56,996 nt of DNA from an uncultured virus (IMG/VR IMGVR_UViG_3300044843_001102) (Duplodnaviria > Heunggongvirae > Uroviricota > Caudoviricetes), in the IMG/VR virus record IMGVR_UViG_3300044843_001102; one strand, written 5' to 3'. Made by a program: the position numbers and the translations under genes. The notes under the pieces were generated by a model. It was not told the origin of the DNA and ran no database searches. It saw only the letters and a list, made by a program, of their open reading frames with translations. Of the stretch, positions 2,558 through 55,195 are shown piece by piece. Position 1 is the stretch's first letter. Every line of letters begins with the position of its first letter.

Positions 2558-2896
2558 TCAGTCTGGAAAGTCTTCGTCAAGCAGATCATAAATATCATCT
2601 ATGTCATCTTCACTTAGATTATATAACTTTTCGGTATTCTTGGCAAGCGTCTCTTGTTTAATAATATAATCTTTTTTTGCTCTACCAGCAATTTTATTTT
2701 TTTGTTTATAACTTTCTACAATACTTCTAACGTCTTTGTCTCCCGCTAAATAAAGTTCTATGAAGAAGCGAACTAATTTAGCGGGATGATTAACGTTTTC
2801 ATATTTAAGATTTGCCATAAACTCTCCGTATTCATATTCAGAGAGATTAACAACAATTCTTTTCTGGTAATTTTCTGATAGTTTTTTATTTTCCAT
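2558..2896 (-). CDS. Hypothetical protein, possibly ribbon-helix-helix-like
   Basis: In-operon ORF; RIVVNLS beta-strand followed by helices. Confidence 0.45.
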   Translation of the reverse strand: MENKKLSENYQKRIVVNLSEYEYGEFMANLKYENVNHPAKLVRFFIELYLAGDKDVRSIVESYKQKNKIAGRAKKDYIIKQETLAKNTEKLYNLSEDDIDDIYDLLDEDFPD

Positions 2897-3215
2897 TTAA
2901 AATATCTTTGATAACTGAGGTTAGAGAATCTTTGTCAAATCCATTTTGAGGATATGGTAATTCTTTGAAGTGTTTTCCTTTAATGTAATAAAGTGTCGGA
3001 ACTCCGTCTTCAATAAAAAGATCTGCTAGGTCTTCCTCTTCGTTTATATCTACGTCGTAGAAGCCTAACTGTGGGAATGATTGAGCAACTGCTTGGAAAT
3101 CTGGTTCAAGATCAACACAGATTGGACAACCATCGCTCTTGAACTTTACAATAAATGGAATGTTTTTATCAACTTTGCTTTTAAATCTAAGCAGATCAAG
3201 TTTCTTCGTTTTCAT
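2886..3215 (-). CDS. Thioredoxin-family protein
   Basis: CPIC active site, cis-Pro motif GVPT, about 109 aa. Confidence 0.85.
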   Translation of the reverse strand: MKTKKLDLLRFKSKVDKNIPFIVKFKSDGCPICVDLEPDFQAVAQSFPQLGFYDVDINEEEDLADLFIEDGVPTLYYIKGKHFKELPYPQNGFDKDSLTSVIKDILNGK

Positions 3216-3465
3216 CTGGTAAAAACTCCTTTACTTTGTCTATACATTCAGGACAGAACAACCTAACTAGTTTCTGTTCACTGCGAACTACCACCACCCA
3301 AGTCTGCGCCATCTCTTTTGACTTTTTATCAAAAGGTTTTTGGCAGGCAGAACATTCATCAGGCAGTCTTCCAAACATACCAATCTTGCTGGTAAGTTCT
3401 TTTTCCACCTCTTTCTTTGCTTCAACTGCTTTTTGTCTTTGTATTTTCCTTGTTGCGTTGCTCAT
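3196..3465 (-). CDS. Small Zn-ribbon hypothetical protein
   Basis: CSAC...CPEC Cys pairs; translationally coupled to neighbours. Confidence 0.55.
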   Translation of the reverse strand: MSNATRKIQRQKAVEAKKEVEKELTSKIGMFGRLPDECSACQKPFDKKSKEMAQTWVVVVRSEQKLVRLFCPECIDKVKEFLPDENEET

Positions 3466-3923
3466 TATTTATTTCCTGTTGATCCAAACCCACATTCACC
3501 TCTACTGGATACAGTTGGGGTATGAAGATAAAGATCTACTTCGCTTGGTAAACATTCAAATGTTGGTAGATTGACTTGATAAAAAATAAGTTGGGCAATT
3601 TTCTCAAAAGGATCAATTGTTCTTACTTCTCTTCCGATATTGTGAAGATTGATTTTAACTTCTCCAGAATATCCAGAGTCAATTACGCACGAACCAACAA
3701 CCAAACTTTTCTTGTATGCCATACCAGACCTGTTTTTAACTTCACATACATAACCAATTGGTGTTGCGACTTGTAGACCAGTCCCAAGCAATACAGACTC
3801 TCCAGGAGCGATCGTCAGCGGTTCGTGACTGCAAAAATAAACATCTGCTCCAGCATCAGAAGGGTTTGCTCTTGTTGGTAAGATTGCTTCTGGTTTTAGT
3901 TTCTTAACATAAATCTTGTCCAT
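3465..3923 (-). CDS. dut: Trimeric dUTPase
   Basis: AGADV, RSG, VIDSGYSGE, KIAQL and RGECGFGSTG motifs; start moved to ATG 3923, which follows a GGAGG SD. Confidence 0.93.
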   Translation of the reverse strand: MDKIYVKKLKPEAILPTRANPSDAGADVYFCSHEPLTIAPGESVLLGTGLQVATPIGYVCEVKNRSGMAYKKSLVVGSCVIDSGYSGEVKINLHNIGREVRTIDPFEKIAQLIFYQVNLPTFECLPSEVDLYLHTPTVSSRGECGFGSTGNK

Positions 3924-11130: not shown

Positions 11131-11159
11131 ATGATACGACAAGTTATTGTTGTTGTCAA
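11131..11159 (-). promoter_or_regulatory. Sigma70-type promoter upstream of thyX
   Basis: TTGACA (11154-11159), 17 bp, TATCAT (11131-11136). Confidence 0.7.
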
Positions 11160-11500
11160 TGTCTTCTCTTTTTTCTTCTTCTAACAGGAGTTCCAAAAGC
11201 ATTACCAGCAAAACCCTGAACTGCTCCGCCGGACATGGCAGACATTTCTTCTAGTGGTTCATTTTCTTCTACGGAGTTTATTGCTTTATTTACACCAGCG
11301 CCAGATGGTTCATTAATTACGGCTTCTTCAAATTCTTCCCATTCATTTACATCATCTTCTTCGGAAACAATTAATTCTTTCTTTTTGCCTTTTTTATCTT
11401 TAACTTTTTCTTTCTTATCTTTTTTGACAAGTTTATCTTCTTTGAAAGCATTTTCAGTCAAGAAGGATTTCCATTTGTCGTTTATATCTTTAAAGTTCAT
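11156..11500 (-). CDS. Putative internal head protein
   Basis: Leader MNFKDINDKWKSFLTE; LEEMSAMSGGAVQGF module; basic C-terminus. Confidence 0.5.
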   Translation of the reverse strand: MNFKDINDKWKSFLTENAFKEDKLVKKDKKEKVKDKKGKKKELIVSEEDDVNEWEEFEEAVINEPSGAGVNKAINSVEENEPLEEMSAMSGGAVQGFAGNAFGTPVRRRKKRRH

Positions 11501-11502
11501 TT

Positions 11503-12357
11503 TTACATTCCTGCAAATTTTTTTGCTTTATTAACAACTCTCTCTGGAAGTTTATCTTCAAGACTTGCTACTATATTATTTAGTTCCGAAAATACATCCG
11601 TTCCTGTAATGTCTTTGTCTCTGTTGTTTTTAAATTCTGGTTTTTCAGGATCATTTGGATTCCAGAACGGAGATTCGCTTGAAATTCCAAAATAACTAAG
11701 TTGATATTTCTCAGCGGGATCAGATTTAGAAATAAAAATAATCAGAGGATTATCTGGTTTATGATAAACCTCATAATACTTTCTTGTCAACACACCAGTA
11801 CACCATTTTGCTCTGGTTGATTTACCCTTGATTCCGTCTGGGTTTGGTCCACGACATAGGGCAACAGATGCTCCTTTGGTTTCTGGAAGATATACTTTCC
11901 AATTATCATCTTCATAAACAAGATTTTGACCTTCACCAGATGTACTTTCTTCTTTTCTACTCTTCTCTTTTTCTCCAAGAGATCCTTCAGCATTATAGAC
12001 GATCTCTTCAAATTCTTCAACAGAGTTTATATCTGAGATGTTAATTTTGTTAAGGAGTTTCTTCTTGCCTTCGTCAGACTTAATCTCATAATATCTTTTG
12101 ACGATTTCAGCAGATGGACCTTCATATTTACCAGTCTTGATAAAGGTTGAGATTCTCCAATCCAGATAATTTGCTTTTTCTTGAACATCAAAGTTCTCTG
12201 GTACAGTTTCTAATATCTTTTGCTTTGCCTCTTCTGGGTCAACTTGATTAAATTCGGAAGATTTAAGAAACTTTGAACTACCAAATCTTTCCATAACTTG
12301 GCGGTACGAAGCTTCTTTTAAGATAAATCTATTCCAATTTTCAAGAAGTTGTTTCAT
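11503..12357 (-). CDS. Phage protein with LxE leader and a PcfJ-like domain
   Basis: Leader MKQLLENWNRFILKE; VYEDDNWKVYLP..ASV....KWCT..YY motif. Confidence 0.5.
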   Translation of the reverse strand: MKQLLENWNRFILKEASYRQVMERFGSSKFLKSSEFNQVDPEEAKQKILETVPENFDVQEKANYLDWRISTFIKTGKYEGPSAEIVKRYYEIKSDEGKKKLLNKINISDINSVEEFEEIVYNAEGSLGEKEKSRKEESTSGEGQNLVYEDDNWKVYLPETKGASVALCRGPNPDGIKGKSTRAKWCTGVLTRKYYEVYHKPDNPLIIFISKSDPAEKYQLSYFGISSESPFWNPNDPEKPEFKNNRDKDITGTDVFSELNNIVASLEDKLPERVVNKAKKFAGM

Positions 12358-13250
12358 TACTCCTCGCCTTCAACCTTCTTTCCTGCTCTCCATTGATAGC
12401 AAGACCAATATCTCGCTGTACAACGATCTTTTCCTGCTGGTTGATCACACTTATGTCTTGCTCTAAAGTTCTTTCTACGGGCAGCAGAATCTCTTTTAAT
12501 TGATAATCCTGGATCACCGAATGAGATCTTCTTTACTCTTCCGCCACATTTAACGTAGACGTGAAACTTTTTTTTTGAGCCGGATGGATTACGAGTTACT
12601 TTACCAAGTCGTGGTTGTTTTTTCTTAACCTCTGCTTCGGTTAGATATTCTTCCATATCATTTTCATCATCTAAATCCATATCATCATCATCTTCAACTT
12701 CTTCGTCCTCCATATCATCATCATCTTCAAAATCATCTTCGTCTTCGTAATCTTCTTCTTCCTCTTCTTCATAGTCATCTTCTTCGGTGTATTTATCTGC
12801 AAAATTTTTTGATTTTTGAGCAAATTTTCTCATACTTTCTTCGCCATAATCACCAAAGTCTTCTTCACCATAGGATGGCAGATCATCAGCATCAAAATCA
12901 TCATCGTCGTCTTCAATATCAGGGTGTTTATCTTCTCCATATTCTTGAAGATCGTGTTGTTCAAAAAGAATTTTTTCTAGTCTCTCAATTGCTTCATCAA
13001 GTTTGTTTTTCTTTTTCTTGATGTGCATTTTTAGTTGAGGAGGGATCTTGCCTTTTCCTTTCTTGGATTTTGTTTCTTTTTTACCACCCGACTCTTTTGA
13101 TGCCTTCTTCATTGGTTCAGAAGTATCACCGTCTTTATCTAAATCAAGAAAATCTGGCTTTGAACCTTTCGATTTGCTTGCTTTTTCTTCTTTTTCCTTC
13201 TTTTCTGTTAGAAGGCGGTGCATCAAAATATCCCATTTCTCAACTCTCAT
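12357..13250 (-). CDS. Modular putative internal head protein
   Basis: LLTE leader, KPDFLDLDKDGD (DxDxDG) module, acidic tract, LTE site, then basic FGDPG...RRKNFRARHKC...ARYWSC module; motif at 13273-13281. Confidence 0.55.
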   Translation of the reverse strand: MRVEKWDILMHRLLTEKKEKEEKASKSKGSKPDFLDLDKDGDTSEPMKKASKESGGKKETKSKKGKGKIPPQLKMHIKKKKNKLDEAIERLEKILFEQHDLQEYGEDKHPDIEDDDDDFDADDLPSYGEEDFGDYGEESMRKFAQKSKNFADKYTEEDDYEEEEEEDYEDEDDFEDDDDMEDEEVEDDDDMDLDDENDMEEYLTEAEVKKKQPRLGKVTRNPSGSKKKFHVYVKCGGRVKKISFGDPGLSIKRDSAARRKNFRARHKCDQPAGKDRCTARYWSCYQWRAGKKVEGEE

Positions 13251-13283
13251 TGTTACTCTCCTACAATTATACTAAATAGTTTA

Positions 13284-13922
13284 TTAATAATACCAATCCT
13301 CATCACCATATAAATTATTATCTATCTGTTTCCATTCTTCTAACCACTTGATGTCTTCTGCGACGCTCCAAGGCGGGATTGAATATAAAGAATCTTCTGT
13401 GGACAAGCTCGCTTCTAGCCATTTAATTCTATTATTTGGATAAACAGCTATTTGACCATTGTGTAATCTTATTACATTTCCTTCTTTATGTTCTTCCAAC
13501 ACAGAGGAACAACCAACATCATAATAGCCTGATCCTCTTTTTTCTGGAATAAAATCTATGGTAAACCAGTAATGTCCCTTGGTGAATGTTTTATTTTCTA
13601 TTCTGATTGCAACTTCACATTCTTTTAAAAGCTCTTTTCTCCAAAACTCTATTTCACCAGAAATAGATTCCCACATTTGTAGTTCACTCATTCTATAATG
13701 TCTAACTCCAAGTTCTGGTAGTTTCCAGTATAAACACTGAATAGGTATTTTATCATAGCAAGCAGAGTATCTTGGAACAAACACTTGGAAGCATAAAGGT
13801 CCACCTCTCAATGCTCTAACCGAAACAAGCCAAGCTTCATCAAACTCTTCCTTTGAGTTTCCCCACGCATCGCCACGAATCCAAACTTTTGTTTGAGGTA
13901 AATTTATGTTTGAAGAAGACAT
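13284..13922 (-). CDS. Conserved-looking phage hypothetical protein
   Basis: TAATG coupling with the sod stop; LQMW...YWFTIDF...EHK...NGQIAVYPNNRI motif. Confidence 0.55.
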   Translation of the reverse strand: MSSSNINLPQTKVWIRGDAWGNSKEEFDEAWLVSVRALRGGPLCFQVFVPRYSACYDKIPIQCLYWKLPELGVRHYRMSELQMWESISGEIEFWRKELLKECEVAIRIENKTFTKGHYWFTIDFIPEKRGSGYYDVGCSSVLEEHKEGNVIRLHNGQIAVYPNNRIKWLEASLSTEDSLYSIPPWSVAEDIKWLEEWKQIDNNLYGDEDWYY

Positions 13923-14458
13923 TATTTCTCCGTCGCTAAACGAGCATTTATAACATTCCAATCAATAACTTTGTAAATGTTGTCTAAATACTCTTCTTTA
14001 TCTGCCTGATAATCTAATGCCCAAGCGTGTTCCCACCAATCAATTAATAAGATAATGTCTGGTTTTATTTCGTGGTTTGCAATGGTCTTTATATTGCCGT
14101 TCTTATCCGTGTAAACCCAACCAGAACCTTGAATTTTCATTGCGACTTCTTTGAGTTCTTTTTGAAAAGAAGCATAAGAACCATATTTTCTATTTACAAG
14201 CTCAAGAAATAAACCGTCTGGTTTTTGATTTGATGGTTTCTTGAACTGAGAGAACCAAATGTTGTGAAGAAAAGCTCCTGCTTTTTGAAACTCACCACCT
14301 ACACCTTTGTTAGCTTTATCGACATAACCTTTGTAAAGCGAACCATAGTGGTAATCAATTGTGTCAGAAGACATAACAGGCTCAAGATCTGTCTTTTTTA
14401 CAGGTAGAGGAACTTGGACATATTTCTTTTTTGATTCAAGTATTATTTTTATCATCAT
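13922..14458 (-). CDS. sod: Fe/Mn superoxide dismutase with short N-terminal extension
   Basis: LEP.MS..T..YHY, GAFLHNIWF, GSGW and DWWEHAW; all four metal ligands identifiable. Confidence 0.92.
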   Translation of the reverse strand: MMIKIILESKKKYVQVPLPVKKTDLEPVMSSDTIDYHYGSLYKGYVDKANKGVGGEFQKAGAFLHNIWFSQFKKPSNQKPDGLFLELVNRKYGSYASFQKELKEVAMKIQGSGWVYTDKNGNIKTIANHEIKPDIILLIDWWEHAWALDYQADKEEYLDNIYKVIDWNVINARLATEK

Positions 14459-17226
14459 TCCTCTTTTTGAAGATTATCGCCTCTTCTCTTATAGCCCTTG
14501 CACTGTGAAGGTGTTGGACGGCAACGAGGGTATTTGCTTCTTTTTTCACCTTCTTGTCTGCCACATGGCTTACATTTTCCATCACGACAAGTGTTACAAT
14601 CTACCCAGCCACCGCCTTTTCCGGGGGCACCTTTTCTTTTAAACCAATCGCCTAAATTGGTTTCGCTGGAAGGTTTGCCAAGTTTACGCTCATCAAGCTC
14701 TTTCATTGCTTCTGTCTTTTTCTTGGATGCCTCTTTTCTTTTTTCAGCATAATCAAGAGCAATTTTCAATCTGGACTTAACCTCTGGATCTTTAGCGTTC
14801 TCGTAAGCAGCACGAACTCTTTGGTGAATAAGATTAATAATTTGTGATTGACGAGCATGTGGTTTTGATTTAAAAGACTCTTTTGATAAAGTATCTCTTA
14901 TATCTTCTGCTGTAGAAAATTTTACACTTACAGTATCTTTTGGATTTTCGTCAGTGTATAAGCGACGATCAGAACCTTCTGGTTTTTTACCTGTTCCAAC
15001 TTTTGGATCTTTTGCTTCGTTTGTTTTCTTTACACAGTTTGGATATTTTTTTCCAAACATTGTTTTCATGCCTTTTTGAGTATAACCTTCCCAGCATTTT
15101 TCATTTAGCTGAATTTCTTCATTTTTCTTTTGACCTTCTTTCGATTTTGTTCTTTGATTCTTGCAGAACTGCTTCATTGTGAAGCCTTTTGGATTGGAAC
15201 AGTTTGCTTTTCTCTTCTTTCTCTCAGAATCAGACCACTCTTCTTTTATTTCATCTTTAGATGTAGAAGCTTTTTTTACTGGTTTTGTTGCATCTGGCGG
15301 AGGGGTTGTCGCAGTTGAACCAGCAAGCCACAATGCTAACGCTTTCTTCGCGACGTGTTTTGCTTTTTTCTTTGTCTCGTCTAATTCTTCCTCTTCTTTT
15401 ATGTTCTTCCAGATCTTGCCTTGACGACATTTAACAACAGCACCAGAAGCATAAGCAGAAGGCCAAGCATCATATTTGCTCTTTGCTATACGAGTACAAC
15501 GATCTTCTTTACCTTTTGTCTTGCCCTCTGTTAATTGTTGACCAAACTTGATTGTAATTTTTTTAGATTCAGTTAAATTAGACATTTCAAGAACTTGTGA
15601 AACAGAATTGGCTCTGTTTCTGCATTTAATCAATCTATTTTTAGGAACTTCTAAACTGTAACAAAAATTATAAGTTATATCTTCAACAGAATTTTCTAAG
15701 TTTTTCTTATCAAATCCTTTTCTTTTTATATAATTTATCATTGTTGAAATACTTTTTTCTGGGTCTTTTATATCTTCTATTGACATACCATTTCCAGTAG
15801 CTCTACAGCCTCCCATACCTCCGCAAGAATGAATGCCAAACAATCCTCCTCCACATGGAGATTTTGGACCTTCTTTTTCTTCAACTTGTCTAGCACAACG
15901 CCCATCAACTTTCTCGGCGCGATCCCCAGTTACACTTGGGTTTAAACTAGACTCATAATAAGAATTTACAATAGCAGCTAGTGCTAAATTTTTTGACAAT
16001 CCTGCTTCAATAAATCTCTTTTCAATTAAACCTGCCATCTCTCTTTGCCTTCTGCTTAAAGAATTTTTTACAACTGCGCTTGTGGTTTTAATACCTTGCT
16101 TTTCTGGCGGTATGCTTGGTTTTTCAGCAAAAATATCCTGTATGAATCTTTTTGTTCCAAGAGCATTATGATTCATGTGTATTCCGTCCGAAAAATCATT
16201 TGAGTGACCATACGGAATATAAACTTTTACTACTCCTCCGAATCTCTGGAGGATTCCTTCTTTGTTTGCTTTGTTTCTAGATCCTATGTCGGCAACTTTA
16301 TATTTGTCTATATTCGTAGGAGGAAGCACAATTGACGTTTTTTCTGGACCAAACAAATTAATCATAGAAGAAATCAAATCTACTTTTGGAATATATGGAG
16401 AATTTCCACCCACAAACAAATATACTTTATCATATTGTTTTGGATCTCCAGCGTCACCTATCTCTCTCAATAATCGACTGTCATTTGCACTATTTTTAAT
16501 AACAAGATTTACATCATAACCAACGGATTTGAGTGCAGACTTAAGACCAAGACCAACTCCTCCGGCTTGACTATGACCATATATTAATGCTTTTTTGCCT
16601 TTGTTTTTATTTTTTTCTTTTTGTATATAATCTTTTAATTCTTGTTCTATTTGCTTTTCATTTTTTTCTGCAGTCTCAACTTCTTCCTTCGTATCTAGTT
16701 TAGAAGTAAGAAAACCTAAAATTCCTTTCTTTTCTTTTTCATCGCTAACTCCAAGAAGAGAAAACAATTTGTCTTTTACCCAAGTAGATCCTGATCCTAT
16801 GGCATCAACAACCATATCTAAGAATCCTTCTTCTAAAAGAGTTTGATATAATTCTTCGTTAATAATTTCATTATGTTGATTTTCTTTGAGATGTTTAAAA
16901 TATTGAACCTGTTTCTCTCTTTTCATTGCTCCTGCCCTTGTTGGATAACAACCTAAATTTCTGTTTGTTTTTTTAGAAAACAAACAATACTTTCCATCTT
17001 TCTTTCTGATAACTTCATCAAGTTGTTCTGCTTCTTCTAATGAACCACCAAATCCAGGAGGGGCAGACTTTGCTCTATTATAATCTGGTTTTTTACTATA
17101 TGGTCCACCACCACTATCGGCTTTTTGACCGCCTTTTGATAGTAAGCGAATCTTCCATTTTCTATGATTTTTTCTTGCTATTTTCTGGAATTTGCTGTCC
17201 GCTTTTGGGACTTGTTGGTTATCCAT
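14455..17226 (-). CDS. Multi-module putative polyprotein: SGNH-hydrolase-like domain, tail-lysozyme-like domain, several small basic Cys-containing modules
   Basis: YGHSQ / GGNS / DGIH; AAIVNSYYESSLNP...GLFG...FCYSLEVP; modules bounded by LDE, LTE, IKE, LNE sites. Confidence 0.6.
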   Translation of the reverse strand: MDNQQVPKADSKFQKIARKNHRKWKIRLLSKGGQKADSGGGPYSKKPDYNRAKSAPPGFGGSLEEAEQLDEVIRKKDGKYCLFSKKTNRNLGCYPTRAGAMKREKQVQYFKHLKENQHNEIINEELYQTLLEEGFLDMVVDAIGSGSTWVKDKLFSLLGVSDEKEKKGILGFLTSKLDTKEEVETAEKNEKQIEQELKDYIQKEKNKNKGKKALIYGHSQAGGVGLGLKSALKSVGYDVNLVIKNSANDSRLLREIGDAGDPKQYDKVYLFVGGNSPYIPKVDLISSMINLFGPEKTSIVLPPTNIDKYKVADIGSRNKANKEGILQRFGGVVKVYIPYGHSNDFSDGIHMNHNALGTKRFIQDIFAEKPSIPPEKQGIKTTSAVVKNSLSRRQREMAGLIEKRFIEAGLSKNLALAAIVNSYYESSLNPSVTGDRAEKVDGRCARQVEEKEGPKSPCGGGLFGIHSCGGMGGCRATGNGMSIEDIKDPEKSISTMINYIKRKGFDKKNLENSVEDITYNFCYSLEVPKNRLIKCRNRANSVSQVLEMSNLTESKKITIKFGQQLTEGKTKGKEDRCTRIAKSKYDAWPSAYASGAVVKCRQGKIWKNIKEEEELDETKKKAKHVAKKALALWLAGSTATTPPPDATKPVKKASTSKDEIKEEWSDSERKKRKANCSNPKGFTMKQFCKNQRTKSKEGQKKNEEIQLNEKCWEGYTQKGMKTMFGKKYPNCVKKTNEAKDPKVGTGKKPEGSDRRLYTDENPKDTVSVKFSTAEDIRDTLSKESFKSKPHARQSQIINLIHQRVRAAYENAKDPEVKSRLKIALDYAEKRKEASKKKTEAMKELDERKLGKPSSETNLGDWFKRKGAPGKGGGWVDCNTCRDGKCKPCGRQEGEKRSKYPRCRPTPSQCKGYKRRGDNLQKEE

Positions 17227-17229
17227 TAT

Positions 17230-17580
17230 TTATCCTCTGTAATTTTTCCAAGCGTACTTTTTTCTCTTAATTAAATAGGTTGGATCAGTGTCATTGGCAT
17301 AAGCCTCTTTTTCAAATGGGTTCTCTCTATAAGCTTTATATCTATCTTTGTGCTTGTAAAGACAAACGAGATAATAATAAGCATACAAAATCCATTGACC
17401 AACAAAGAATAACTCTTTTTGTTGTCTGTAATGAATCATTTCATGTCGCCAAGTTTTTTCAATTATCTTTCCACGAAAGAAAATAAAGATTGCGAAAGAG
17501 TTAGCAATAAAATTTGCATTGGCAAATTTGGATAGAAAACCAGGGACCCAAGAATCTTCAATAACAATAGGTAGTTTCAT
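17230..17580 (-). CDS. Small zincin-like (HExxH) protein
   Basis: RHEMIHYRQ...NPFEKEAY. Confidence 0.6.
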   Translation of the reverse strand: MKLPIVIEDSWVPGFLSKFANANFIANSFAIFIFFRGKIIEKTWRHEMIHYRQQKELFFVGQWILYAYYYLVCLYKHKDRYKAYRENPFEKEAYANDTDPTYLIKRKKYAWKNYRG

Positions 17581-17634
17581 TTAGGATCCTCCAAAGCAAA
17601 AAGCCACCAAACTAAATAGTTTTATAAAAAAACA

Positions 17635-17667
17635 AAAACCCTATACACATTTTGTGTATAGGGTTTT
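17635..17667 (-). terminator. Intrinsic terminator
   Basis: aaaaccctatacac/gtgtatagggtttt stem with U-tract on the minus strand. Confidence 0.75.
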
Positions 17668-17687: not shown

Positions 17688-17963
17688 TTAAGGAATTTTT
17701 TTACCAGTTTCTGGATTATACCCAGCTTGTCCTGCAGATTGTTTATTTAACATTTGTTCATATTGTGGATATGCTTTCCTAATAAGACTGTCGATTGCAG
17801 ACAATACACCACTTGCTCTCGGATCTGATTTAAGTCTATCTCTTAGATATTTAGCACCTTGTACAAGGGTTTGTAGATTAGCATTTACATCCGATTCGCT
17901 TTGCTCATTTAACAAATTTTTTATTTCATTTAAAATTATTTTTTTGAGTTGATTGTCTGTCAT
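17688..17963 (-). CDS. Small putative internal head protein
   Basis: Leader MTDNQLKKIILNEIKNLLNE; AGGAG SD. Confidence 0.55.
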   Translation of the reverse strand: MTDNQLKKIILNEIKNLLNEQSESDVNANLQTLVQGAKYLRDRLKSDPRASGVLSAIDSLIRKAYPQYEQMLNKQSAGQAGYNPETGKKIP

Positions 17964-21253: not shown

Positions 21254-21982
21254 TTAGAGTTTTTTGAGAAGTTTGCTGATTGCTCTAACTAATGCTTCTT
21301 GTTTCATTGGATCTTGTAAGTTAACTTTAATATCTTCTTCTTCTCCTTTTTTAGGACCAGTATCTTTTAATGCATCAGGGTCTCTGGTAAATCCTTTTTT
21401 TGGTCCAATCATTTTATCCATTGTTTCTTTATCGGTGAACGGTACATAAACATCATCAGGAGATTTTGGTAGACCTGAATCATTAGTGGGCATTGGTGAA
21501 TCGGCGGTAATTTCTGTATCTTTACCCATTCCAGCAGAAGCACTTGCTCTTCGTTGCTCCGCTGCAGCAACTGCTTTATCAAGAATTTGATCAAAAGTTT
21601 CTCCAGCTATTGATGTACCACCTCTTTGAACTCTCTGTTCGAAAACCGCAGATAAAGCTCTGAAATTTGTAATTTTATCAAGGTTTAATCTTGGATAAAG
21701 TATTTTTATAAGTCTGCTTGTACGCTTATCTAGTTTACCATTAACCTGGGGCCAAGAACTTCTATATTCTTCTCCCATTATTTTTCTTAAAGCTCTTTGA
21801 ATTTTCATAATTTCTACTGCGTTTCGACTAATCGCTGGTCTCGACGTTCTAGATGTCGCACCTTTTTGATAAGGACTCTTTGTTTGTCCCGGTTCTGATC
21901 CTGGAATATCTGGGTAATCAACTTCTTTTAAAACTTTTTTTAGTTCTTCTAAAATAATTTTTCTTAAAAACTTAGCTTCCAT
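21254..21982 (-). CDS. Putative internal head protein with a degenerate peptidoglycan-binding-like segment
   Basis: Leader MEAKFLRKIILEELKKVLKE; IMKIQRAL...VNGKLDKRT; motif at 22005-22013. Confidence 0.5.
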   Translation of the reverse strand: MEAKFLRKIILEELKKVLKEVDYPDIPGSEPGQTKSPYQKGATSRTSRPAISRNAVEIMKIQRALRKIMGEEYRSSWPQVNGKLDKRTSRLIKILYPRLNLDKITNFRALSAVFEQRVQRGGTSIAGETFDQILDKAVAAAEQRRASASAGMGKDTEITADSPMPTNDSGLPKSPDDVYVPFTDKETMDKMIGPKKGFTRDPDALKDTGPKKGEEEDIKVNLQDPMKQEALVRAISKLLKKL

Positions 21983-40611: not shown

Positions 40612-40620
40612 TAAATAGTT
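40612..40620 (-). promoter_or_regulatory. Putative late-promoter motif ACTATTTA (representative copy)
   Basis: Same motif upstream of at least 14 genes; see findings. Confidence 0.65.
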
Positions 40621-43730: not shown

Positions 43731-45794
43731 TTAAATCAGTTTGGACTTCGCCGTTATAGATTTTAGAGTTGGAGCAACCTTTTTATCTTTTGTTGTCAAC
43801 TGTATTTCAACTTGTAGCATGTTGCCGATAATATTTGCCTTGGTAAGATCATAAGGAAATACTTCTGGCGGAAAATCAATAGGCTCAGACCATTTAGCAT
43901 TTTCTAGTTCTACTTTTGTATTGCCCGCTCTTAATCTAAACCTCAATGCTGTCCCTTCTGGAAGATCCGCTTCTGCTGAAATTGACTGCCACACTTGTTT
44001 CATTGTGGAAGTTGTTATTGGGTTTGATGATACACTTCCAAAGAATACTGTGCTGTATTGACCTTTTGGCGCAGTAAAGTAGTTTAGAGTATAACCAGTC
44101 ATGTCTGAGTATGTGTATGGAGATGAACCAACTGAAACAGTTCCTACCGCAGACATTGTATTTGGATCCATCTTTGTTGCGCTTGAACCACCTTGATTTA
44201 CGACCCAAACAAAACCATCATAGTCAATAGCAGCACCGACAGGGCTTCCTGCTCCCTTGATAAAACCTTCTACTTGTGGTGGATCAACATTGCCATTTAT
44301 TTTTACTGCCCCGCCTGAACCATCTACGGCGACATAAGTATAACCATCATTTGATGTAGCAACACCACGACCACCACCCCAGTTCATGTTAACGACCTTC
44401 CATTGTAATGTCTTGGGATCATAAACAGATGCTTTGTTGCCCGAAGCAACCCACAAACGACCATACTTATCTACATTAAGCCCGTAAGCACTAGCAGGGA
44501 ACTTTAGTTGTGGTAAGGTATTATTCTTTGTAACGACTTGTGTCAAAGGGTCTATCATGACCAGCGTGTTGAACTCACCTTGCGCCCAGATCATTCCCTT
44601 TTGGTCAATTACTAAACCATAGGGCGATACACCCAATGGAATTTCCGTCATCGTTGCGCCAGTGTTGGCATTAAGACGAACCATTGTTTTTTGGTTCCAA
44701 TAACCTATCCATACATGATTTTCTTTATCTACAGCGGCACCTCTAGCATAAGATCCTTTGCCGGGGTTTACAATAAACTTGATACACTCATCATTGCCTA
44801 TTGGCTGTGAGCTTGTCGATGTTTCAATAATACCATTGCCGTTTTTATCAGCACATTTTGTTTTATCTGCGATAATTTTTGTTACGGCACCATCGCCACG
44901 GCAAGCAACCCAAACATTTCCCTCAAGGTCAACAGAAGTTCTTGAAGGGTCTGAGCAAACTTGGAATCTACCAACTTCTGTAATGGTCTTACAATCAACT
45001 TTGGATACAGTGTTATTTGGTGAGTTTGCGATCCAAATAAACTTCAAGTTGAGCGAGATCGCTGATAAATCAAGAGTTACATTACCTTGTGGATCCAAAC
45101 CAAGCCCTGTAGCATTTTCACTATTTAGATTCCATCCTTTACCACCAGAACCAATAGTTTGTTGATTACAAGTTAGATCACAATTACCACAAGTTGATTT
45201 TACGCCCTCGTCTGTTTCGCCATCGCAGTCGTTGTCTTTGAAGTCGCAGAGTTCTGGTGCTGGTCCAATGCTCCCGCTACATGCTTTCCAGAAGCCGTCT
45301 GTACATAATTGCTGACCTTTTTTACACAAGCCTTTTCCTACTGTCGCTGGATCGTATTCATAACACGATAAAGGCTTGCCAGAACAAGTACAGCCTATAG
45401 TTCCAGCCTTTGAGCAATCTGGGCATACATCTCCAAAGTTTGGATTGAAGTCATCGCAATCAATACCAAAGTTGCAGTTTTCACCAAACCCATCGCCGTC
45501 TTCATCAATACATTCAGGCTCTTCTGTGTCCTCTACAGGAGGCTCAACATCTTCGACCGCATCTTCTTCTACTTCTATTATTTCCGTATTTTCTAGGTCA
45601 TTTTCCGCGTCTTCTACCTGTGTATCTTCCACTGGTTCTGTGTCTGATTCAATAACATCTGGTTGTTCTATATCTTTAACAATGATGGTGGTGTCTTGCT
45701 GTATGTCAAAGCCAATGCCCCCTTGAATAGTGGGCGCTGCTGTCTCTTGCGAACAGGAGACTAAAAATAAAAGCGGTATTATTTTCTTTAACAT
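43731..45794 (-). CDS. Lipoprotein with Cys-rich putative metal-binding repeats and a beta-propeller
   Basis: Lipobox LVSC; DEDGDG, DCDD, ELCDFKDNDCDGETDE; IWIANS, SRTSVD..GNVWV, YTYSDMTG. Confidence 0.75.
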   Translation of the reverse strand: MLKKIIPLLFLVSCSQETAAPTIQGGIGFDIQQDTTIIVKDIEQPDVIESDTEPVEDTQVEDAENDLENTEIIEVEEDAVEDVEPPVEDTEEPECIDEDGDGFGENCNFGIDCDDFNPNFGDVCPDCSKAGTIGCTCSGKPLSCYEYDPATVGKGLCKKGQQLCTDGFWKACSGSIGPAPELCDFKDNDCDGETDEGVKSTCGNCDLTCNQQTIGSGGKGWNLNSENATGLGLDPQGNVTLDLSAISLNLKFIWIANSPNNTVSKVDCKTITEVGRFQVCSDPSRTSVDLEGNVWVACRGDGAVTKIIADKTKCADKNGNGIIETSTSSQPIGNDECIKFIVNPGKGSYARGAAVDKENHVWIGYWNQKTMVRLNANTGATMTEIPLGVSPYGLVIDQKGMIWAQGEFNTLVMIDPLTQVVTKNNTLPQLKFPASAYGLNVDKYGRLWVASGNKASVYDPKTLQWKVVNMNWGGGRGVATSNDGYTYVAVDGSGGAVKINGNVDPPQVEGFIKGAGSPVGAAIDYDGFVWVVNQGGSSATKMDPNTMSAVGTVSVGSSPYTYSDMTGYTLNYFTAPKGQYSTVFFGSVSSNPITTSTMKQVWQSISAEADLPEGTALRFRLRAGNTKVELENAKWSEPIDFPPEVFPYDLTKANIIGNMLQVEIQLTTKDKKVAPTLKSITAKSKLI

Positions 45795-45800
45795 ATTATC

Positions 45801-46751
45801 CTACTTTTTGAGAATTTCTATTCTTATGCCTTTTGTTTCAAGCGTGTTTGTTAGAACAATATCTTCTTTACTTACTCCACGCTCTGCAAACCAAGTTGCT
45901 AATTTTTCTGCCTTTTCTTTAAGAATCTTATCTTCACTATAAATTATTTTAATGGATGATTTTAATACTTTATGAACCTTTAATATGTTTTCCAAGTATC
46001 CTTTTGACTCAACATTTAATTGAGGTTCTACTTTAGTTTCCTCAACTTTAACTGGTGGATCTGGTTGCTTAACTGGGGTTGCTGGTTCTGGAAGTTTAAT
46101 AGGTTCAACAACTGGTTCTGGTGTTTTCACTGCTGGCTTTACTTCTACTGGTTTCTCCACAACGGGAGCAGGAACCTTCTTTGGCGAAAAGATTTTTTCA
46201 AAGCCCAAAGTTAAACTATACGATGGAACAAAAGAATTCTTTGATTCTACAGAGGGAGAGAATAAAACCTGTGGCTCAAAAAAAAATCTTGCTGATGAAA
46301 ATAGATCCGTTGAAAATCTTAAGGACGAAGAGAAACCTGTGTCAGAGTCAATTTTATCTGTGTATCCAGCGGTTAGAGTATTGACAACAAAGCCGGGCTT
46401 TACAGAAACTCTAAAATCATAAATTTGATACTGAACATTTAGAGAGGTAATAATAGTTTGATTTTGCAAACTTGTTCCAAACCTTTCATTTACTTGGGCA
46501 GACAACCAGCCGTATCCAAGCATTAAATCTGGACCAATTCTAAAAGAAGGGCTGGCATCAAACAGAAATGATCCATTCAATGCCAACCCACCTGAAAATT
46601 CTGGAATTAAACTTTCATGTTTTGAAACTGCTCCTAACTGATCCTTTTCGTCAAAAATCCTACCATAGCCACCAAGCCCAACTGTTGCTTCCCAAGCATT
46701 GGCAGTATTTGATAATAGTAATAAAAAGAGAGTTAAGAGCAGTTTTTTCAT
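45801..46751 (-). CDS. OmpA-like outer-membrane protein
   Basis: Signal peptide ANA, amphipathic beta-strands, Pro-rich linker, truncated OmpA_C-like end (KAEKLATWFAERGV...I...RIEI). Confidence 0.6.
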   Translation of the reverse strand: MKKLLLTLFLLLLSNTANAWEATVGLGGYGRIFDEKDQLGAVSKHESLIPEFSGGLALNGSFLFDASPSFRIGPDLMLGYGWLSAQVNERFGTSLQNQTIITSLNVQYQIYDFRVSVKPGFVVNTLTAGYTDKIDSDTGFSSSLRFSTDLFSSARFFFEPQVLFSPSVESKNSFVPSYSLTLGFEKIFSPKKVPAPVVEKPVEVKPAVKTPEPVVEPIKLPEPATPVKQPDPPVKVEETKVEPQLNVESKGYLENILKVHKVLKSSIKIIYSEDKILKEKAEKLATWFAERGVSKEDIVLTNTLETKGIRIEILKK

Positions 46752-46753
46752 TG

Positions 46754-48625
46754 TTATAAATCCTTACAAATTAATTCTTGACCAGTACAATCTGGTGTTG
46801 CAGTAGCACAATACATAGTCAAAGCATCTTGCCCACAACCAGCTCTTGTCTCAAAATAACGAGCAATTGTTTTTTCTGGGCATAATACTTCTTGATCAAC
46901 ACCTGAGCCTAGTGTTCCTTCTACATTTAAAACTTCTGTCTCGCCAGTTGGTTTGCCAGCAACATCGAGTTTACCACAAACAACTTTTACAGAATTGAAT
47001 AGAGTGCCTCCGGGTTTTTTGCCTTTAATACCAACAACAGCCCAACCACTCTTGCAAACTACAAGCGGAGTTGGAGTTGAAGGATCCCAACCAAAACATC
47101 CAGAACCACCTGATTTTTGTGTAGTTGTTTGAGTTGTTATGACAGTTCCATTTTGTTCAATTGTAACTTTACCACAAACGGCAGTTGTTCTAGTGGCTGT
47201 TTTTTGACCATTACTGAAATCAAAACCTAAACCGATTAAAACATCAGTAGCAGGGCAACCCATCTTTGGACCGACACCACCACCCATTCCTCCTAACATA
47301 CCAGCAGTCACATCGCCAGTATATACGAAGGCAGGCAAAGCACAGCCAAACCCGCTTACACAAGCACAAGAGCCGTCTTTACAGACGCCTTCAGCACATT
47401 TTGTACCATCAACAGCATTTACGGAAGCACATCCATTTACAGCATCACATGAATCAACGGTGCAAAGATTAGCGTCATCACAAACCTTTTGAGCGCCAGC
47501 AATACATGATCCTGCCTCACACTTATCGTCAATGCTACAAACATTATTATCGCTACAAACATTTGTGTTATTCTCAAAATAACAACCTGATTCTGACTTG
47601 CATAGATCAGTTGTACATTCATTATTATCTGCACAACTTAATACTAATCCAGATTTACAAACAGTTTCGGAGCATAAATCATTCACAGTACAAGCGTCAT
47701 TGTCGGTACAAGTTGCTACATTTGCTAAATAAACACAACCATTTGCTGGATCGCAAGTATTGTCTGTACAAACATTATTATCATCACAAATAGCAACTGC
47801 TTTTGATTTGCAAACAACACCCTCACAGGCATCATCTAATGTGCAAACATCGTTGTCTGTACAAGTCGCTTGATTTGGCAAATGATTACAAACATGAATT
47901 TCATCCTTACCAAATGTCTCGCAAGTATCATCTGTGCAAACATTTCCATCATCGCAATTAAATGGTTTACCGCCTACACATTTACCATCTTTGCAAATAT
48001 CTTCTGCGGTGCAACCATCTCCATCGACACAAGTTGCATCAACTGGCAAATGTACGCAACCTTTATCTGCCTCGCAAGAATCTAATGTGCAAGATTCTAG
48101 ATCGTCACAATTAATTTGAATACCAGCAACACATACACCAAGTTGGCATTGATCGCCTGCCGTACATTCATTATTATCGGAACATGGTGTATCAAATGGA
48201 ACTTTAACACACTTACCTTCTTGGCAATCTGGTGCCACACAAGGCAAAGCTATAACGACACAATCGGTCGCCGTAACACATTCTGGTGGTGGAGCAACGT
48301 CCTGAGTTACATCTTCTGGTACATCTTGTGCATCTTGCGTATCTTCTGTGTCCGTTCCTGTAACGCCATCAGGGACAGAAACGTCAGCGTCATCGCTCCC
48401 ACTGTCAGCGAGAACGTCACTTTGGGTACTGTCAGCAACATCGCTAACAACTTCTTCTGTTCCAGATTGCTCATCTTTTGTCTCCGTTACGTCTTGACAT
48501 AAATTACAAACACCGCTGTCTCCAACAACTGCATCAGCACAATCGTGTTTTGTTTCTTTGTGTTCCCAACCTAAATCGTCGCCACATGCAGTCAACAATA
48601 ATAAAGATAATAAAAGTTTTTTCAT
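46754..48625 (-). CDS. Cys-rich repeat lipoprotein
   Basis: Lipobox LTAC (start 48625 with AGGAG SD); repeated C.D.N.CT.D.C units; C-terminal GG.GG lectin-like domain. Confidence 0.75.
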   Translation of the reverse strand: MKKLLLSLLLLTACGDDLGWEHKETKHDCADAVVGDSGVCNLCQDVTETKDEQSGTEEVVSDVADSTQSDVLADSGSDDADVSVPDGVTGTDTEDTQDAQDVPEDVTQDVAPPPECVTATDCVVIALPCVAPDCQEGKCVKVPFDTPCSDNNECTAGDQCQLGVCVAGIQINCDDLESCTLDSCEADKGCVHLPVDATCVDGDGCTAEDICKDGKCVGGKPFNCDDGNVCTDDTCETFGKDEIHVCNHLPNQATCTDNDVCTLDDACEGVVCKSKAVAICDDNNVCTDNTCDPANGCVYLANVATCTDNDACTVNDLCSETVCKSGLVLSCADNNECTTDLCKSESGCYFENNTNVCSDNNVCSIDDKCEAGSCIAGAQKVCDDANLCTVDSCDAVNGCASVNAVDGTKCAEGVCKDGSCACVSGFGCALPAFVYTGDVTAGMLGGMGGGVGPKMGCPATDVLIGLGFDFSNGQKTATRTTAVCGKVTIEQNGTVITTQTTTQKSGGSGCFGWDPSTPTPLVVCKSGWAVVGIKGKKPGGTLFNSVKVVCGKLDVAGKPTGETEVLNVEGTLGSGVDQEVLCPEKTIARYFETRAGCGQDALTMYCATATPDCTGQELICKDL

Positions 48626-48663
48626 AGTTTCTCCTTTTGATAAATAGTTTATCAGAAACACAA

Positions 48664-52386: not shown

Positions 52387-52425
52387 ATATGTTTCTCCAC
52401 TTATTGTATAATAAATAGTATTATA

Positions 52426-53509: not shown

Positions 53510-54367
53510 TTAACCTTCTAATAAATTTTTTCTCAAAACACTATATAAATAGTTTTCATAAATCTGTTGATCTTTAAAATGCTTTAAATATTTTCTTATT
53601 TTCTTTTGTAATTTGCCTGTAAATCTTTCTTGTGGATGGTCTATATAATATTCTCTAAGATTATCGCCAAAATCTATATCTTTTGCTACTTTTTGTAGTT
53701 CTGTAGAATCTGATGTGGCGACCAATTCCATCGCTTTATCTATGCCAAAATTGCGAGCAAGCAATTCAGCAAACTCATGACCAAAAGCATCTAGTTCGAT
53801 GTCTGCTCCTAAGTATTGTTTTCTATCTGTATCTGCTCCTGGTATTTGTCCCCAGTCTTCGTATTTTTGTTTTGCCTCTGGTCTTGTAATACCCATTTTC
53901 TTAGACAACCCAGTGTATTGCCTATCGTGTATTAGTTCGTGCCTAATTGCTGTTGCTATGCTGTGAATAATTTTATCTTTATTCATTAAGCTCGGATTAA
54001 AATCTTCAGAGGTTTCCGCAGTATGAAGTATCAACTGCATCTTACCTTTTTGATCTAATCCTGCTTCGGCAGCGATTAAATAATTATTTGGATGTTCGTT
54101 AGTCTGTGAGGATGGTTCCATTTTAACATCTGATGGATTTATCGTAGATACAACAACAGATAAAGGAACTTTTTTGGTTTTGAAGAATGTTTTTAATGCT
54201 TTTGATAATGCAGTAGCACTTTCTGTTTGTTCAATCTCTCCATAACCAGCAACTCTCACAGAATCAGTAAATTCATTATCTTCGTCTAGGAAATTAGAAC
54301 TTGCTAAAAATTGTTCTAACTCCTTGTAAAGTTCTTTCTGTAATATTGCTTCATTCAGCATTATCAC
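53510..54367 (-). CDS. Zincin-like (HExxH) protein
   Basis: RHELIHDRQ...Y....IELDAF. Confidence 0.6.
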   Translation of the reverse strand: MIMLNEAILQKELYKELEQFLASSNFLDEDNEFTDSVRVAGYGEIEQTESATALSKALKTFFKTKKVPLSVVVSTINPSDVKMEPSSQTNEHPNNYLIAAEAGLDQKGKMQLILHTAETSEDFNPSLMNKDKIIHSIATAIRHELIHDRQYTGLSKKMGITRPEAKQKYEDWGQIPGADTDRKQYLGADIELDAFGHEFAELLARNFGIDKAMELVATSDSTELQKVAKDIDFGDNLREYYIDHPQERFTGKLQKKIRKYLKHFKDQQIYENYLYSVLRKNLLEG

Positions 54368-54954
54368 TCTCCAATAAGAATGTCGTTTATTGCTCTATAA
54401 ATCTTATCGGATTTTGTAAAGATATTTGGTTCTTTGTGCTCTTTAAATAAGAAAGCACCAGTTGTGGATGGTTCTGAAACAAGGTCAAAGCATATTAATT
54501 GGAAGTCGTCTTGTACCATCGTAACTCCGCTTTGTTCTTTTGTTGATCCAAGACCGCGAGAAGAGACACCAAGTTTGACTCCACCTTTAATAAGATCTTT
54601 AGCGATTCTACCTGCTGGAGTATCTAATAGTCTTAGTTTGCCAACAACTTCATCGCCTTTCATCTCAATGTGTGTTACAATGTGAGAAGCATTCTTTAAT
54701 TCAATAACAGAAGAATCTGGGTGGTCTAATTCGCCTAATGCTCTTTTTTCTTGAACAAGCTTTTTATAGTTTTCCACTTCTCTTTGGAGAGTTCTCTTTG
54801 GATAAACTCTGCCGTTGCCGTTCTTAGCATCTGCTTTTTGTAAACGGCCAGCAAGAATAACATCGCCAGCTTCAATCATTCTCTTATCGTCTTCTGTTAG
54901 AAGAGAAGAATCGTTATCAAGTTCAAGAAATTCTGTTAAAACATATTTATTCAT
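54364..54954 (-). CDS. Prohead core protease (T4 gp21 family)
   Basis: NGNGRVYP, ALGELDHP, ASH, GVSSRGLGS, FDLVSEPST. Confidence 0.95.
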   Translation of the reverse strand: MNKYVLTEFLELDNDSSLLTEDDKRMIEAGDVILAGRLQKADAKNGNGRVYPKRTLQREVENYKKLVQEKRALGELDHPDSSVIELKNASHIVTHIEMKGDEVVGKLRLLDTPAGRIAKDLIKGGVKLGVSSRGLGSTKEQSGVTMVQDDFQLICFDLVSEPSTTGAFLFKEHKEPNIFTKSDKIYRAINDILIGE

Positions 54955-54955
54955 A

Positions 54956-55174
54956 TTATGGTGTTGCCTTAAATTTTGAAACAGCTGAAATTACTGCGAG
55001 AGCATTTGCTTGGTTCATCGTGGCAAATTTTCTTGCGTCATCAAGCAAACTATTTAGTTGTTTTAATGTAGAAGAATCAACAGGAGTTGGATTACCAACT
55101 TGTTCATTTAAATTTTTAAATCTAGAAACTTCTTCTTCAATAATTTCATTTAATCTTTCATATGATATTTTCAT
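54956..55174 (-). CDS. Small putative core/internal protein
   Basis: Leader MKISYERLNEIIEEEVSRFKNLNE. Confidence 0.5.
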   Translation of the reverse strand: MKISYERLNEIIEEEVSRFKNLNEQVGNPTPVDSSTLKQLNSLLDDARKFATMNQANALAVISAVSKFKATP

Positions 55175-55195
55175 AGTCAGCACCCGCCCTTACAA

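Follow-up and report, generated by a model that had tools for sequence, protein, structure and literature searches.

A mosaic protein of a marine T4-like phage with prohead-protease-type motifs at its seams as a candidate cargo precursor

What is the role of a long phage protein that reads like a string of unrelated pieces, with one and the same short motif at its joints? The question is raised by a 923-residue open reading frame (ORF) at 14455..17226 (minus strand, ATG start, beginning 3 nucleotides past the stop of the upstream gene) in DNA of an uncultured virus, IMG/VR record IMGVR_UViG_3300044843_001102. The whole stretch of 56,996 nucleotides, called the window in the following, belongs to an uncultured marine T4-like myovirus; every long ORF is on the minus strand, and the genes include those for DNA polymerase, ribonucleotide reductase, a UvsX-like recombinase, helicase, sheath, tube, baseplate parts, a Gp23-family major capsid protein and a head-maturation protease. 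The original prediction, made from the letters alone, took the ORF for a polyprotein with (L/I)-x-E sites of the prohead protease between its modules, packaged in the prohead and cut there into two cell-envelope hydrolases and several small basic peptides. The ORF and all motif strings quoted for it proved real, and in the order described, when 14455..17226 was translated. We lean towards the view, which we hold to be somewhat better than evenly probable, that the 923-residue protein is a cargo precursor processed by the prohead protease. Tentatively, and with doubt and belief nearly in balance, we also consider that marine T4-like phages may possess a general 'cargo polyprotein' system with a shared pool of cassettes, each carrying its own prohead-protease site.

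The modular build of the protein is seen best in its relatives. Seven small modules (M1, M2, M6, M8, M9, M10 and M11; Table 1) with net charges of +5 to +12 flank an enzyme-like core; five of the seven contain two or six cysteines, and short acidic or Lys-rich linkers lie between modules. Of 7997 candidates scored in a word-indexed search, 1613 are relatives at E ≤ 0.001, and an exhaustive all-against-all search gave 3399 representative marine proteins, 297 of them at E ≤ 1e-30. Few relatives are collinear with the ORF; the others share one to four modules, in different order and beside other domains, and the coverage map has sharp module edges at residues ~65, 565, 657, 737 and 843. For instance, M1 occurs in N-terminal, internal or C-terminal position, with the end ..PPGFGG(S/A)LEE, and M10, the commonest module, is frequently the C-terminal end of other proteins. 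A Pfam scan of 47 relatives found a family in 24, among them SLT, Phage_lysozyme2, CHAP, Amidase_2, HD, AAA_33, GNAT, cytidylyltransferase and several DUFs; Pkinase and ART-PolyVal (the latter found with ArdcN) were observed below their cut-offs, and ParB-named fusions are also present. The shuffled recurrence in the 3399 representatives agrees with the predicted string of independently mobile modules.

The seams between these modules were counted in 256 relatives by anchoring on the conserved core of each module; this set excludes a 99% identical copy of the protein and three translations from GenBank loci. Within eight residues upstream, [LI]xE (Leu or Ile, any residue, Glu) was found at 62 of the 65 M9 seams, one of them at the extreme N-terminus of its protein, at 47 of 64 M8 seams and at 83 of 201 M10 seams, the last number rising to 102 with [LIVM]xE. 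Somewhat wider windows gave 29 of 38 for M6 (16 residues upstream) and, for M11 (22 residues upstream), 39 of 51 with [LI]xE and 49 of 51 with [LIVM]xE, while on the downstream side of M1 the motif follows PPGFGG within eight residues in 34 of 36 cases. Random windows of equal length in the same proteins contain [LI]xE in 8–24%. The motif holds over 11–97 distinct flanking contexts per module, and the claim that the seams carry it can be extended from the single protein to the whole family, in the form of a hydrophobic-x-Glu motif that is present irrespective of the neighbouring module.

Composition does not account for this observation. In 363 unique seam windows there are 257 occurrences of [LI]xE, where the composition of the windows themselves predicts 83, while the mirror pattern Ex[LI] (83 vs 83 expected), [LI]xK (71 vs 75) and [LI]xD (7 vs 12) were at or below expectation in the same windows. 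The logo of 335 seams has L (190), I (45), V (24) and M (12) at P3, E at P1 and K, G, A, R or S at P1′; the rule used, Glu with a hydrophobic P3 where present and otherwise the last Glu, favours a hydrophobic P3. Within the 923-residue protein itself there are 15 sites, compared with 8.48 ± 2.56 in 2000 shuffles (15 or more in 1.25% of shuffles). The expectation of an LxE excess beyond that of an E-rich composition is therefore clear across the relatives and only modest in the one protein, and the observation is stronger at the family level than in the single sequence since the seam motif across relatives lies far above chance. The seam codons of the 923-residue gene vary (TTA, CTT, CTC, CTA and ATA for L/I; GAA and GAG for E) and no DNA repeats were found at its seams, which places the conservation at the protein level and rules out a DNA-level linker.

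The ends of the relatives follow the same rule. Of 205 unique N-termini of relatives, 130 contain [LI]xE among their first 16 residues (internal windows: 15%), and the leaders are of few recurring types that resemble the T4 capsid targeting sequence. Modules at the start of a protein either come after a short motif-ended leader, at the same distance (MDILTE then KCW; MKIKIKRKLVE then KCW; MKKIIKLTESELISLVKKVINE then SDPK; MSDPKKGTGKKP), or begin right at the predicted cut, as in M-SDPKKGTGKKP.

A protease of a family with fitting specificity is encoded in the window. T4 gp21 cleaves after L/I-X-E, according to the passage on T4 in PMC9026906. The gp21 homologue expected at 54364-54954 was confirmed as a Peptidase_S77 protein (89.8 bits vs a cut-off of 27; Table 1). 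Within the first 71 residues of the Gp23-family capsid protein there are seven [LI]xE sites; the last, ELLRE followed by ASTMSAGD, stands just before the conserved core, a position that we take to correspond to the trimming site of T4 gp23. Peptidase_S77 was found in 8 of 15 IMG/VR records carrying module proteins, including all six records that are at least 57% complete; CheckV completeness is 33–100% for the records with S77 and 8–41% for the seven without. Among cultured phages with module proteins three of four have it. The exception, a single case, is the Pelagibacter phage HTVC033P (53 kb), in which M10 is a stand-alone 96-residue gene with no leader and no LxE. At 2704-3527 of HTVC033P (L003) a run of tiny basic genes (59, 42, 96 and 82 residues) adjoins an amidase gene; one of them is the stand-alone M10, and the run may correspond to the modular proteins in unfused form, in a phage that has no S77 protease.

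Evidence from virions is available for a related group of proteins. Table S8 of Sullivan et al. 2010 (PMC3037559) includes T4-GC119 among the structural proteins, with 'Y' and 13 counts in the first phage column, 'NP' in the second and no detection in the third. We read the columns as S-SM1, S-PM2 and Syn9, and the first is taken as S-SM1 because of the text of that paper. The cyanophage genes of T4-GC119 contain M6-, M9- and M11-type modules, and in S-SM1 gp115, which has all three types, the seams are IQE followed by G and VLE followed by G. A protein from the same module pool is thus present in purified S-SM1 virions, as far as the table goes; position and cutting are outside its scope. The T4-GC119 proteins (S-SM1 gp115, Syn9 gp114, the S-P4 'structural protein' and Bellamy gp123) share these modules and Glu-ending seams with the 923-residue protein. 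They differ from it in having no SGNH or lysozyme core and in P3, which is often F, T or Q; tblastn covers 21% of the ORF at 33% identity.

The upstream sequences in the window suggest the timing of expression. The motif ACTATTTA occurs in 16 copies, compared with 3.80 ± 1.88 expected, and none of 100 shuffles reached 16. Fourteen of the copies are on the gene strand, mostly 16–38 nucleotides before a start codon; sites on the minus strand include, besides the one in Table 1, 40612-40619, 52412-52419 and 13273-13280. The motif precedes the sheath gene, two neck-region genes, the gene of a scaffold-like 602-residue protein and two small head-region genes. It also precedes the operon of the ORF, where it stands behind a terminator hairpin, the gene of a 297-residue neighbour (23 nucleotides upstream) and that of an acidic LxE-rich protein of 312 residues. 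The ribonucleotide reductase and UvsX genes have TTGACA-type upstream sequences instead. We infer that ACTATTTA is probably a late-type promoter element of this phage group, and the 923-residue ORF is probably expressed late. The T4 late promoter consensus, TATAAATA, was tried as well and is not enriched in the window (6 copies vs 4.59 expected).

The core of the protein combines two enzyme-like domains, and the coordinates proposed for both were correct (Table 1). The whole ORF gave only a chance match in a PDB sequence search (E 0.59), no NCBIfam family for itself and six neighbours, sub-threshold Pfam matches (Phage_lysozyme2 and Esterase), and two PHROGs families of unknown function across the small modules. 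In an AlphaFold2 model made with 60 sequences (mean predicted local distance difference test, pLDDT, 61) the first domain is a folded alpha/beta structure, for which four of five Foldseek matches in the PDB at E ≤ 0.001 are SGNH hydrolases (E 6.4e-4 to 1e-3, template modelling (TM) scores 0.45–0.59). The best of these is 1yzf, with E 6.4e-4 and TM by target of 0.59; further down the list are the SGNH domains of the peptidoglycan O-acetyltransferases PatB and OatA. From their motifs, YGHSQ, GGN and DGIH may represent SGNH blocks I, III and V, with Ser219, Asn275 and Asp347/His350 as putative block residues. Pfam gave no SGNH family in the ORF, the nearest match being Esterase (E 0.036), upstream at residues 182-226; the relatives P0044 and P0252 match Lipase_GDSL_2 below its cut-off.

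For the second domain, Phage_lysozyme2 (PF18013) matches residues 401-541 with E 0.0047 and 17.6 bits, under the cut-off of 28.2. The orthologue P0004, 65% identical over residues 1-724, passes the same profile with 32 bits, P0017 scores 55.3 bits in this region and P0005 matches SLT in the same place; the lysozyme-like assignment is based on these orthologues. The Glu in NSYYES is a putative catalytic residue. A division of labour is plausible in which the SGNH esterase would remove O-acetyl groups so that the lysozyme could cut the glycan, and in the relative P0044 the Lipase_GDSL_2 match is joined to Amidase_2, an esterase-like pairing with another wall enzyme. The predicted release of two hydrolases is uncertain because no clear linker site separates the two enzyme-like domains. 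The sole candidate site between the two is LIE 400-402, in the first predicted helix of the lysozyme domain; a site at this position is present in the four listed relatives (LIE, LIE, LIE and IYE), one of which is P0002, the 99% identical copy.

The largest of the small modules were given no fold or function by structure comparison. In the AlphaFold2 model M10 reaches pLDDT ~90+ at residues 770-840, and a second model of residues 738-923 has pLDDT 72.8. For the second model, Foldseek against the PDB gave no match at E ≤ 0.001, and among 48,161 chains compared by VIA-align the best Z was 7.8, all matches being generic helical hairpins or bundles. The Protein Atlas placed M10 near unnamed viral clusters, with DUF5771 (0.81) as the nearest named cluster, a lead at most. 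M11 may have a zinc-knuckle-like fold. In the orthologues the helical region after M2 is kept together with M1 and M2 ahead of lysozyme-type domains.

Table 1. Positions of the modules of the 923-residue protein and of associated elements in the window
Feature	Position	Residues	Strand	Remarks
M1	17032..17226	1-65	minus	net +9; helix 12-30, then disorder; ends PPGFGGSLEE
M2	16882..17013	72-115	minus	small beta-sheet and helix; 2 Cys; net +10; pLDDT ~77-84; borders QLDE (69-71) and HLKE (113-115)
Helical region	16612..16881	116-205	minus	amphipathic/hydrophobic stretches; INE, LLE and LEE sites
SGNH/GDSL-hydrolase-like domain	16111..16611	~206-372	minus	Foldseek and motifs
Lysozyme or lytic-transglycosylase-like domain	15577..16059	~390-550	minus	profile matches in orthologues
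Two-site seam	15526..15576		minus	NLTE (551-553) and QLTE (565-567); segment pLDDT < 50
M6	15394..15525	568-611	minus	K-rich lead, then DRC..IAKSKYDAWPSAYASGAVVKC; 2 Cys; net +8
Linker	15241..15393	612-662	minus	ELDE and EIKE sites; K/A/P-rich stretch; mostly pLDDT < 50
M8	15100..15240	663-709	minus	EWS..C.NPKGFTMKQFC; 2 Cys; net +6
M9	15016..15099	710-737	minus	KCWEGYTQKGMKTMFGKKYPNCVKKTNE; 2 Cys; QLNE ahead
M10	14689..15015	738-846	minus	DPKVGTGKKP..RRLYTDENP, then helical bundle; ends KELDE
M11	14458..14688	847-923	minus	..DWFKRKG..GGWVDCNTCRDGKCKPCGR..YPRCRP..QC; 6 Cys; net +12
116-residue HExxH (HEMIH) protein, candidate small zincin-like peptidase	17230..17580		minus	3 nucleotides upstream of the ORF; phrog_15610 'protease' E 7e-22
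ACTATTTA motif	17613..17620		minus	33 nucleotides upstream of the gene preceding the ORF
Intrinsic-terminator-like hairpin	17635..17667		minus	15-pair stem and T run; just upstream of ACTATTTA; sets off the transcription unit of the ORF
297-residue neighbour, same protein kind	12357..13250		minus	leader-like N-terminus ending LLTE, acidic tract, YLTE then A, basic Cys module (DUF5754-like)
Prohead serine protease, T4 gp21 family	54364..54954		minus	Pfam Peptidase_S77 (PF03420) E 2.1e-25; phrog_207 E 1.4e-52

Taken together, the modules, their mobility, the conservation of the seams, the presence of the protease and the upstream motif shared with structural genes support the original prediction in part; packaging, cleavage, retention, ejection with the DNA and the enzymatic activities we infer. 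In the reading we favour, the ORF would encode a late-expressed precursor of the 'polyvalent protein' type, in which a peptidoglycan-attacking core (SGNH esterase-like plus lysozyme-like) is flanked by seven small, strongly basic modules. Thousands of marine phage proteins exchange these modules as cassettes, and the hydrophobic-x-Glu site at each cassette edge matches the L/I-x-E rule of the phage's own Peptidase_S77 protease. The precursor would be incorporated into the prohead and then cut at some or all seams, leaving in the virion a ~46 kDa hydrolase, or two enzymes if LIE-402 were cut, together with several small basic peptides that would travel with the DNA. Prohead entry might come about by attraction of the basic modules to hyper-acidic scaffold-like proteins, which is speculation only. 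In the general system unrelated enzymes and small basic proteins would be strung into precursors; one incorporation would load a whole, rapidly reshuffled set of proteins, and within the capsid the head protease would set each one free to be delivered with the DNA.

Several observations weigh against this reading. The 923-residue protein and its orthologues have no short N-terminal leader, the first [LI]xE being at residues 63-65, and the gene is surrounded by replication and nucleotide-metabolism genes, outside the head module. The [LI]xE excess of the single protein is modest (p 0.0125, z 2.57) and is exceeded by 5 of 54 other ORFs in the window; higher values are found for the capsid protein (4.02), a 124-residue head protein (2.99) and a replication-type primase/polymerase-like protein (3.40). 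The disordered LxE linkers expected between domains were borne out in part: 10 of the 15 sites are at most three residues from AlphaFold2 segments with pLDDT < 50 (binomial p 0.039), but only 7 of the 15 are strictly inside such segments (p 0.21). Sites 707 and 844 are at predicted helix ends and 253 and 400 are inside folded enzyme domains. Across the relatives there is no Glu in 29 of 364 unique seams, and strict [LI]xE stands at only 41% of the M10 seams; in the 923-residue protein the seam before M10, its largest module, is TNE, not L/I. The seams of P0186, P0190 and P0247 are without the motif, and relatives of P0190 occur in the S77-positive records G017 and G019, which rules out the explanation that motif-less seams belong to phages without S77. 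T4-GC119 is absent from the virion detections given for Syn9 (Table S8, PMC3037559), and late expression fits an endolysin equally well.

This last point leads to the main rival, an uncleaved multidomain lysin, either virion-associated or a late endolysin, whose small modules would bind or anchor and whose motif would be an uncut linker or helix-cap feature; we consider it rather unlikely. It would accommodate the missing leader of the 923-residue protein and the motif sites within predicted helices, for instance 122, 130 and 131, which share one long helix. M1, M2 and the helical region are consistently joined to SLT or lysozyme domains in P0003-P0012, P0014 and P0018, which suggests that the N-terminal cassette and the lysozyme are one working unit, and according to the relevant section of PMC5512222 the virion RNA polymerase of phage N4, like the ArdC-type polyvalent proteins, is delivered unprocessed. 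On the other hand, an uncut linker does not explain why at least six unrelated modules share an edge motif at fixed distance with any neighbour, why the mirror motif, [LI]xK and [LI]xD are not enriched, or why leaderless proteins start exactly at the predicted cut. Fusions of these modules to kinase, HD, ParB-named, ART and cytidylyltransferase domains show that they are not cell-wall-specific.

Processing by another protease, perhaps outside the prohead, would retain the cuts and change their agent, and a candidate agent is the HExxH protein encoded next to the ORF, which shares its transcription unit and, apart from its HEMIH motif and phrog_15610 match, has a Protein Atlas lead to the zincin-like eCIS_core family; in one cluster, 29% of the members carry this family. 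For polyvalent proteins, Iyer et al. 2017 propose processing driven by a peptidase, in the part of PMC5512222 that deals with it. We regard this as improbable: the protein has no Pfam or NCBIfam family, and the seam motif fits the S77 specificity and is not known to fit a zincin. Its homologue adjoins a module protein only in three identical copies and L021, lies 2.5 kb off in L060 and is missing from the examined flank of the 83%-identical L010; with any match in only 5 of 61 loci, an adjacency confined to near relatives, it was ruled out as a conserved partner. Very improbable, too, is that the motif is a recombination joint for in-frame shuffling of cassettes, a by-product with no proteolytic role. 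The extreme mosaicism of the relatives would suit such a joint, yet the seam codons vary within the gene, no repeats coincide with the seams, and a conserved unit of three residues is too short for homologous recombination.

The window contains further proteins of related kind. The C-terminal module of the 297-residue neighbour is found again in many related loci, with [LI]xE ahead of it in six of seven unique relatives. N-termini ending in [LI]xE within 6–16 residues were observed for the minus-strand ORFs at 1326-2264, 11156-11500, 11503-12357, 17688-17963 and 21254-21982 (MKQLLENWNRFILKE, MEAKFLRKIILEELKKVLKE and MAKRKDLLLTE are examples), and these are candidate leader-tagged cargo or core proteins. 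The acidic 312-residue protein has 12 LxE sites vs 4.5 expected (z 4.06). An Fe/Mn superoxide dismutase (13922-14458, minus strand; Sod_Fe_C E 5.8e-21), whose gene overlaps the stop of the 923-residue ORF, begins with MMIKIILE followed by S, which resembles the MKIKIIKE-type leaders of module proteins; it may be a head-cargo superoxide dismutase.

Some observations concern the head region, all on the minus strand. Between head genes lies the gene of the 602-residue protein (50578-52386), the likely scaffold, in which a very long Asp/Glu tract is combined with ends rich in LxE. Immediately upstream of the protease gene, a 75-residue ORF (54956-55183), which begins MKISYERLNEIIEEE, occupies the position of T4 gp67/gp68. 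In the capsid protein (48717-50546, 609 residues) the best Pfam stretch is confined to residues 352-599; this suggests that a large insertion, ~250 residues in length, follows the conserved N-terminal segment. Between neck and capsid genes, the proteins at 43731-45794, 45801-46751 and 46754-48661 have lipoprotein-like signal peptides (e.g. MKKLLLSLLLLTAC) and Dicty_CTDC repeats or beta-propeller-like matches. For the 46754-48661 gene the annotated GTG is probably not the true start, since an ATG 36 nucleotides downstream follows a ACTATTTA site.

The idea of such a precursor is not wholly new in kind, as it combines T4 internal proteins with their targeting sequence, polyvalent proteins and the head proteolysis of giant phages. 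In the T4 head cargo (IPI, IPII, IPIII and Alt) a capsid targeting sequence of 10 residues serves for loading, and gp21 trims the proteins after L/I-x-E. The 923-residue protein resembles it in the Peptidase_S77 family of the protease, the cut rule at the module edges and the small basic predicted products, and its relatives bear short leaders ending in the motif. The T4 proteins are separate genes with one N-terminal trim (in Alt also one C-terminal), whereas the 923-residue chain, itself without a short leader, would give ~10 predicted products.

Polyvalent proteins, as characterised in the portions of PMC5512222 drawn on here, are likewise mosaic chains of many domains, with lysozymes among their effector enzymes, for which packaging and delivery at invasion are predicted. 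With two enzyme-like domains and seven small modules in a T4-like phage, the 923-residue protein falls under their broad definition. Of the signature domains (zincin-like peptidase, ART-PolyVal, ParB, SNF2 etc.) Pfam found none in the chain, only lysozyme; beside the same small modules, the relative P0096 has ART-PolyVal at 26.8 bits (cut-off 31.2) and ArdcN at 24.1 bits (cut-off 22.6). For polyvalent proteins self-processing by an in-chain zincin-like peptidase is proposed in the corresponding section of PMC5512222. Unlike that set, the 923-residue chain has joints that fit a prohead protease, small modules without Pfam family and no in-chain peptidase domain. The words 'marine' and 'cyanophage' have 0 occurrences in the article of Iyer, Burroughs, Anand, de Souza and Aravind 2017 (PMC5512222).

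In the giant phages phiKZ, 201phi2-1 and SPN3US a gp21-like protease cuts head and ejection proteins after a short x-x-Glu motif; in the sections of PMC10052503 and PMC9026906 on these phages, a diverged gp21 homologue is described as cutting many internal head proteins after Glu, with several cuts per chain. The cuts reported there for SPN3US are removals of N-terminal propeptides, plus the C-terminal propeptide of the protease itself, rather than a series of functional modules, and unlike the relatives of the 923-residue protein these giant-phage proteins, as presented in those sections, do not draw on a shuffled pool. No description of protease-jointed cargo polyproteins or of the present module motifs was found among the listed open-access papers, which dealt with T4, giant phages, other cultured phages or RNA viruses.

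Should the seams prove to be cut, the unannotated mosaic proteins of ocean viromes, thousands in number, would have to be seen as virion cargo precursors, and the motif would give their exact mature termini, which would allow simple annotation and mass-spectrometry searching. The question is directly testable in cultured cyanophages and Flavobacterium phages bearing such genes. If true, the reading would widen the T4 internal-protein system, in which single proteins are tagged, to include polyproteins, and would explain the free swapping of injected enzymes and small DNA-associated proteins; it would also provide a counterpart, in double-stranded DNA phages, of the polyproteins of RNA viruses, acting on virion cargo.

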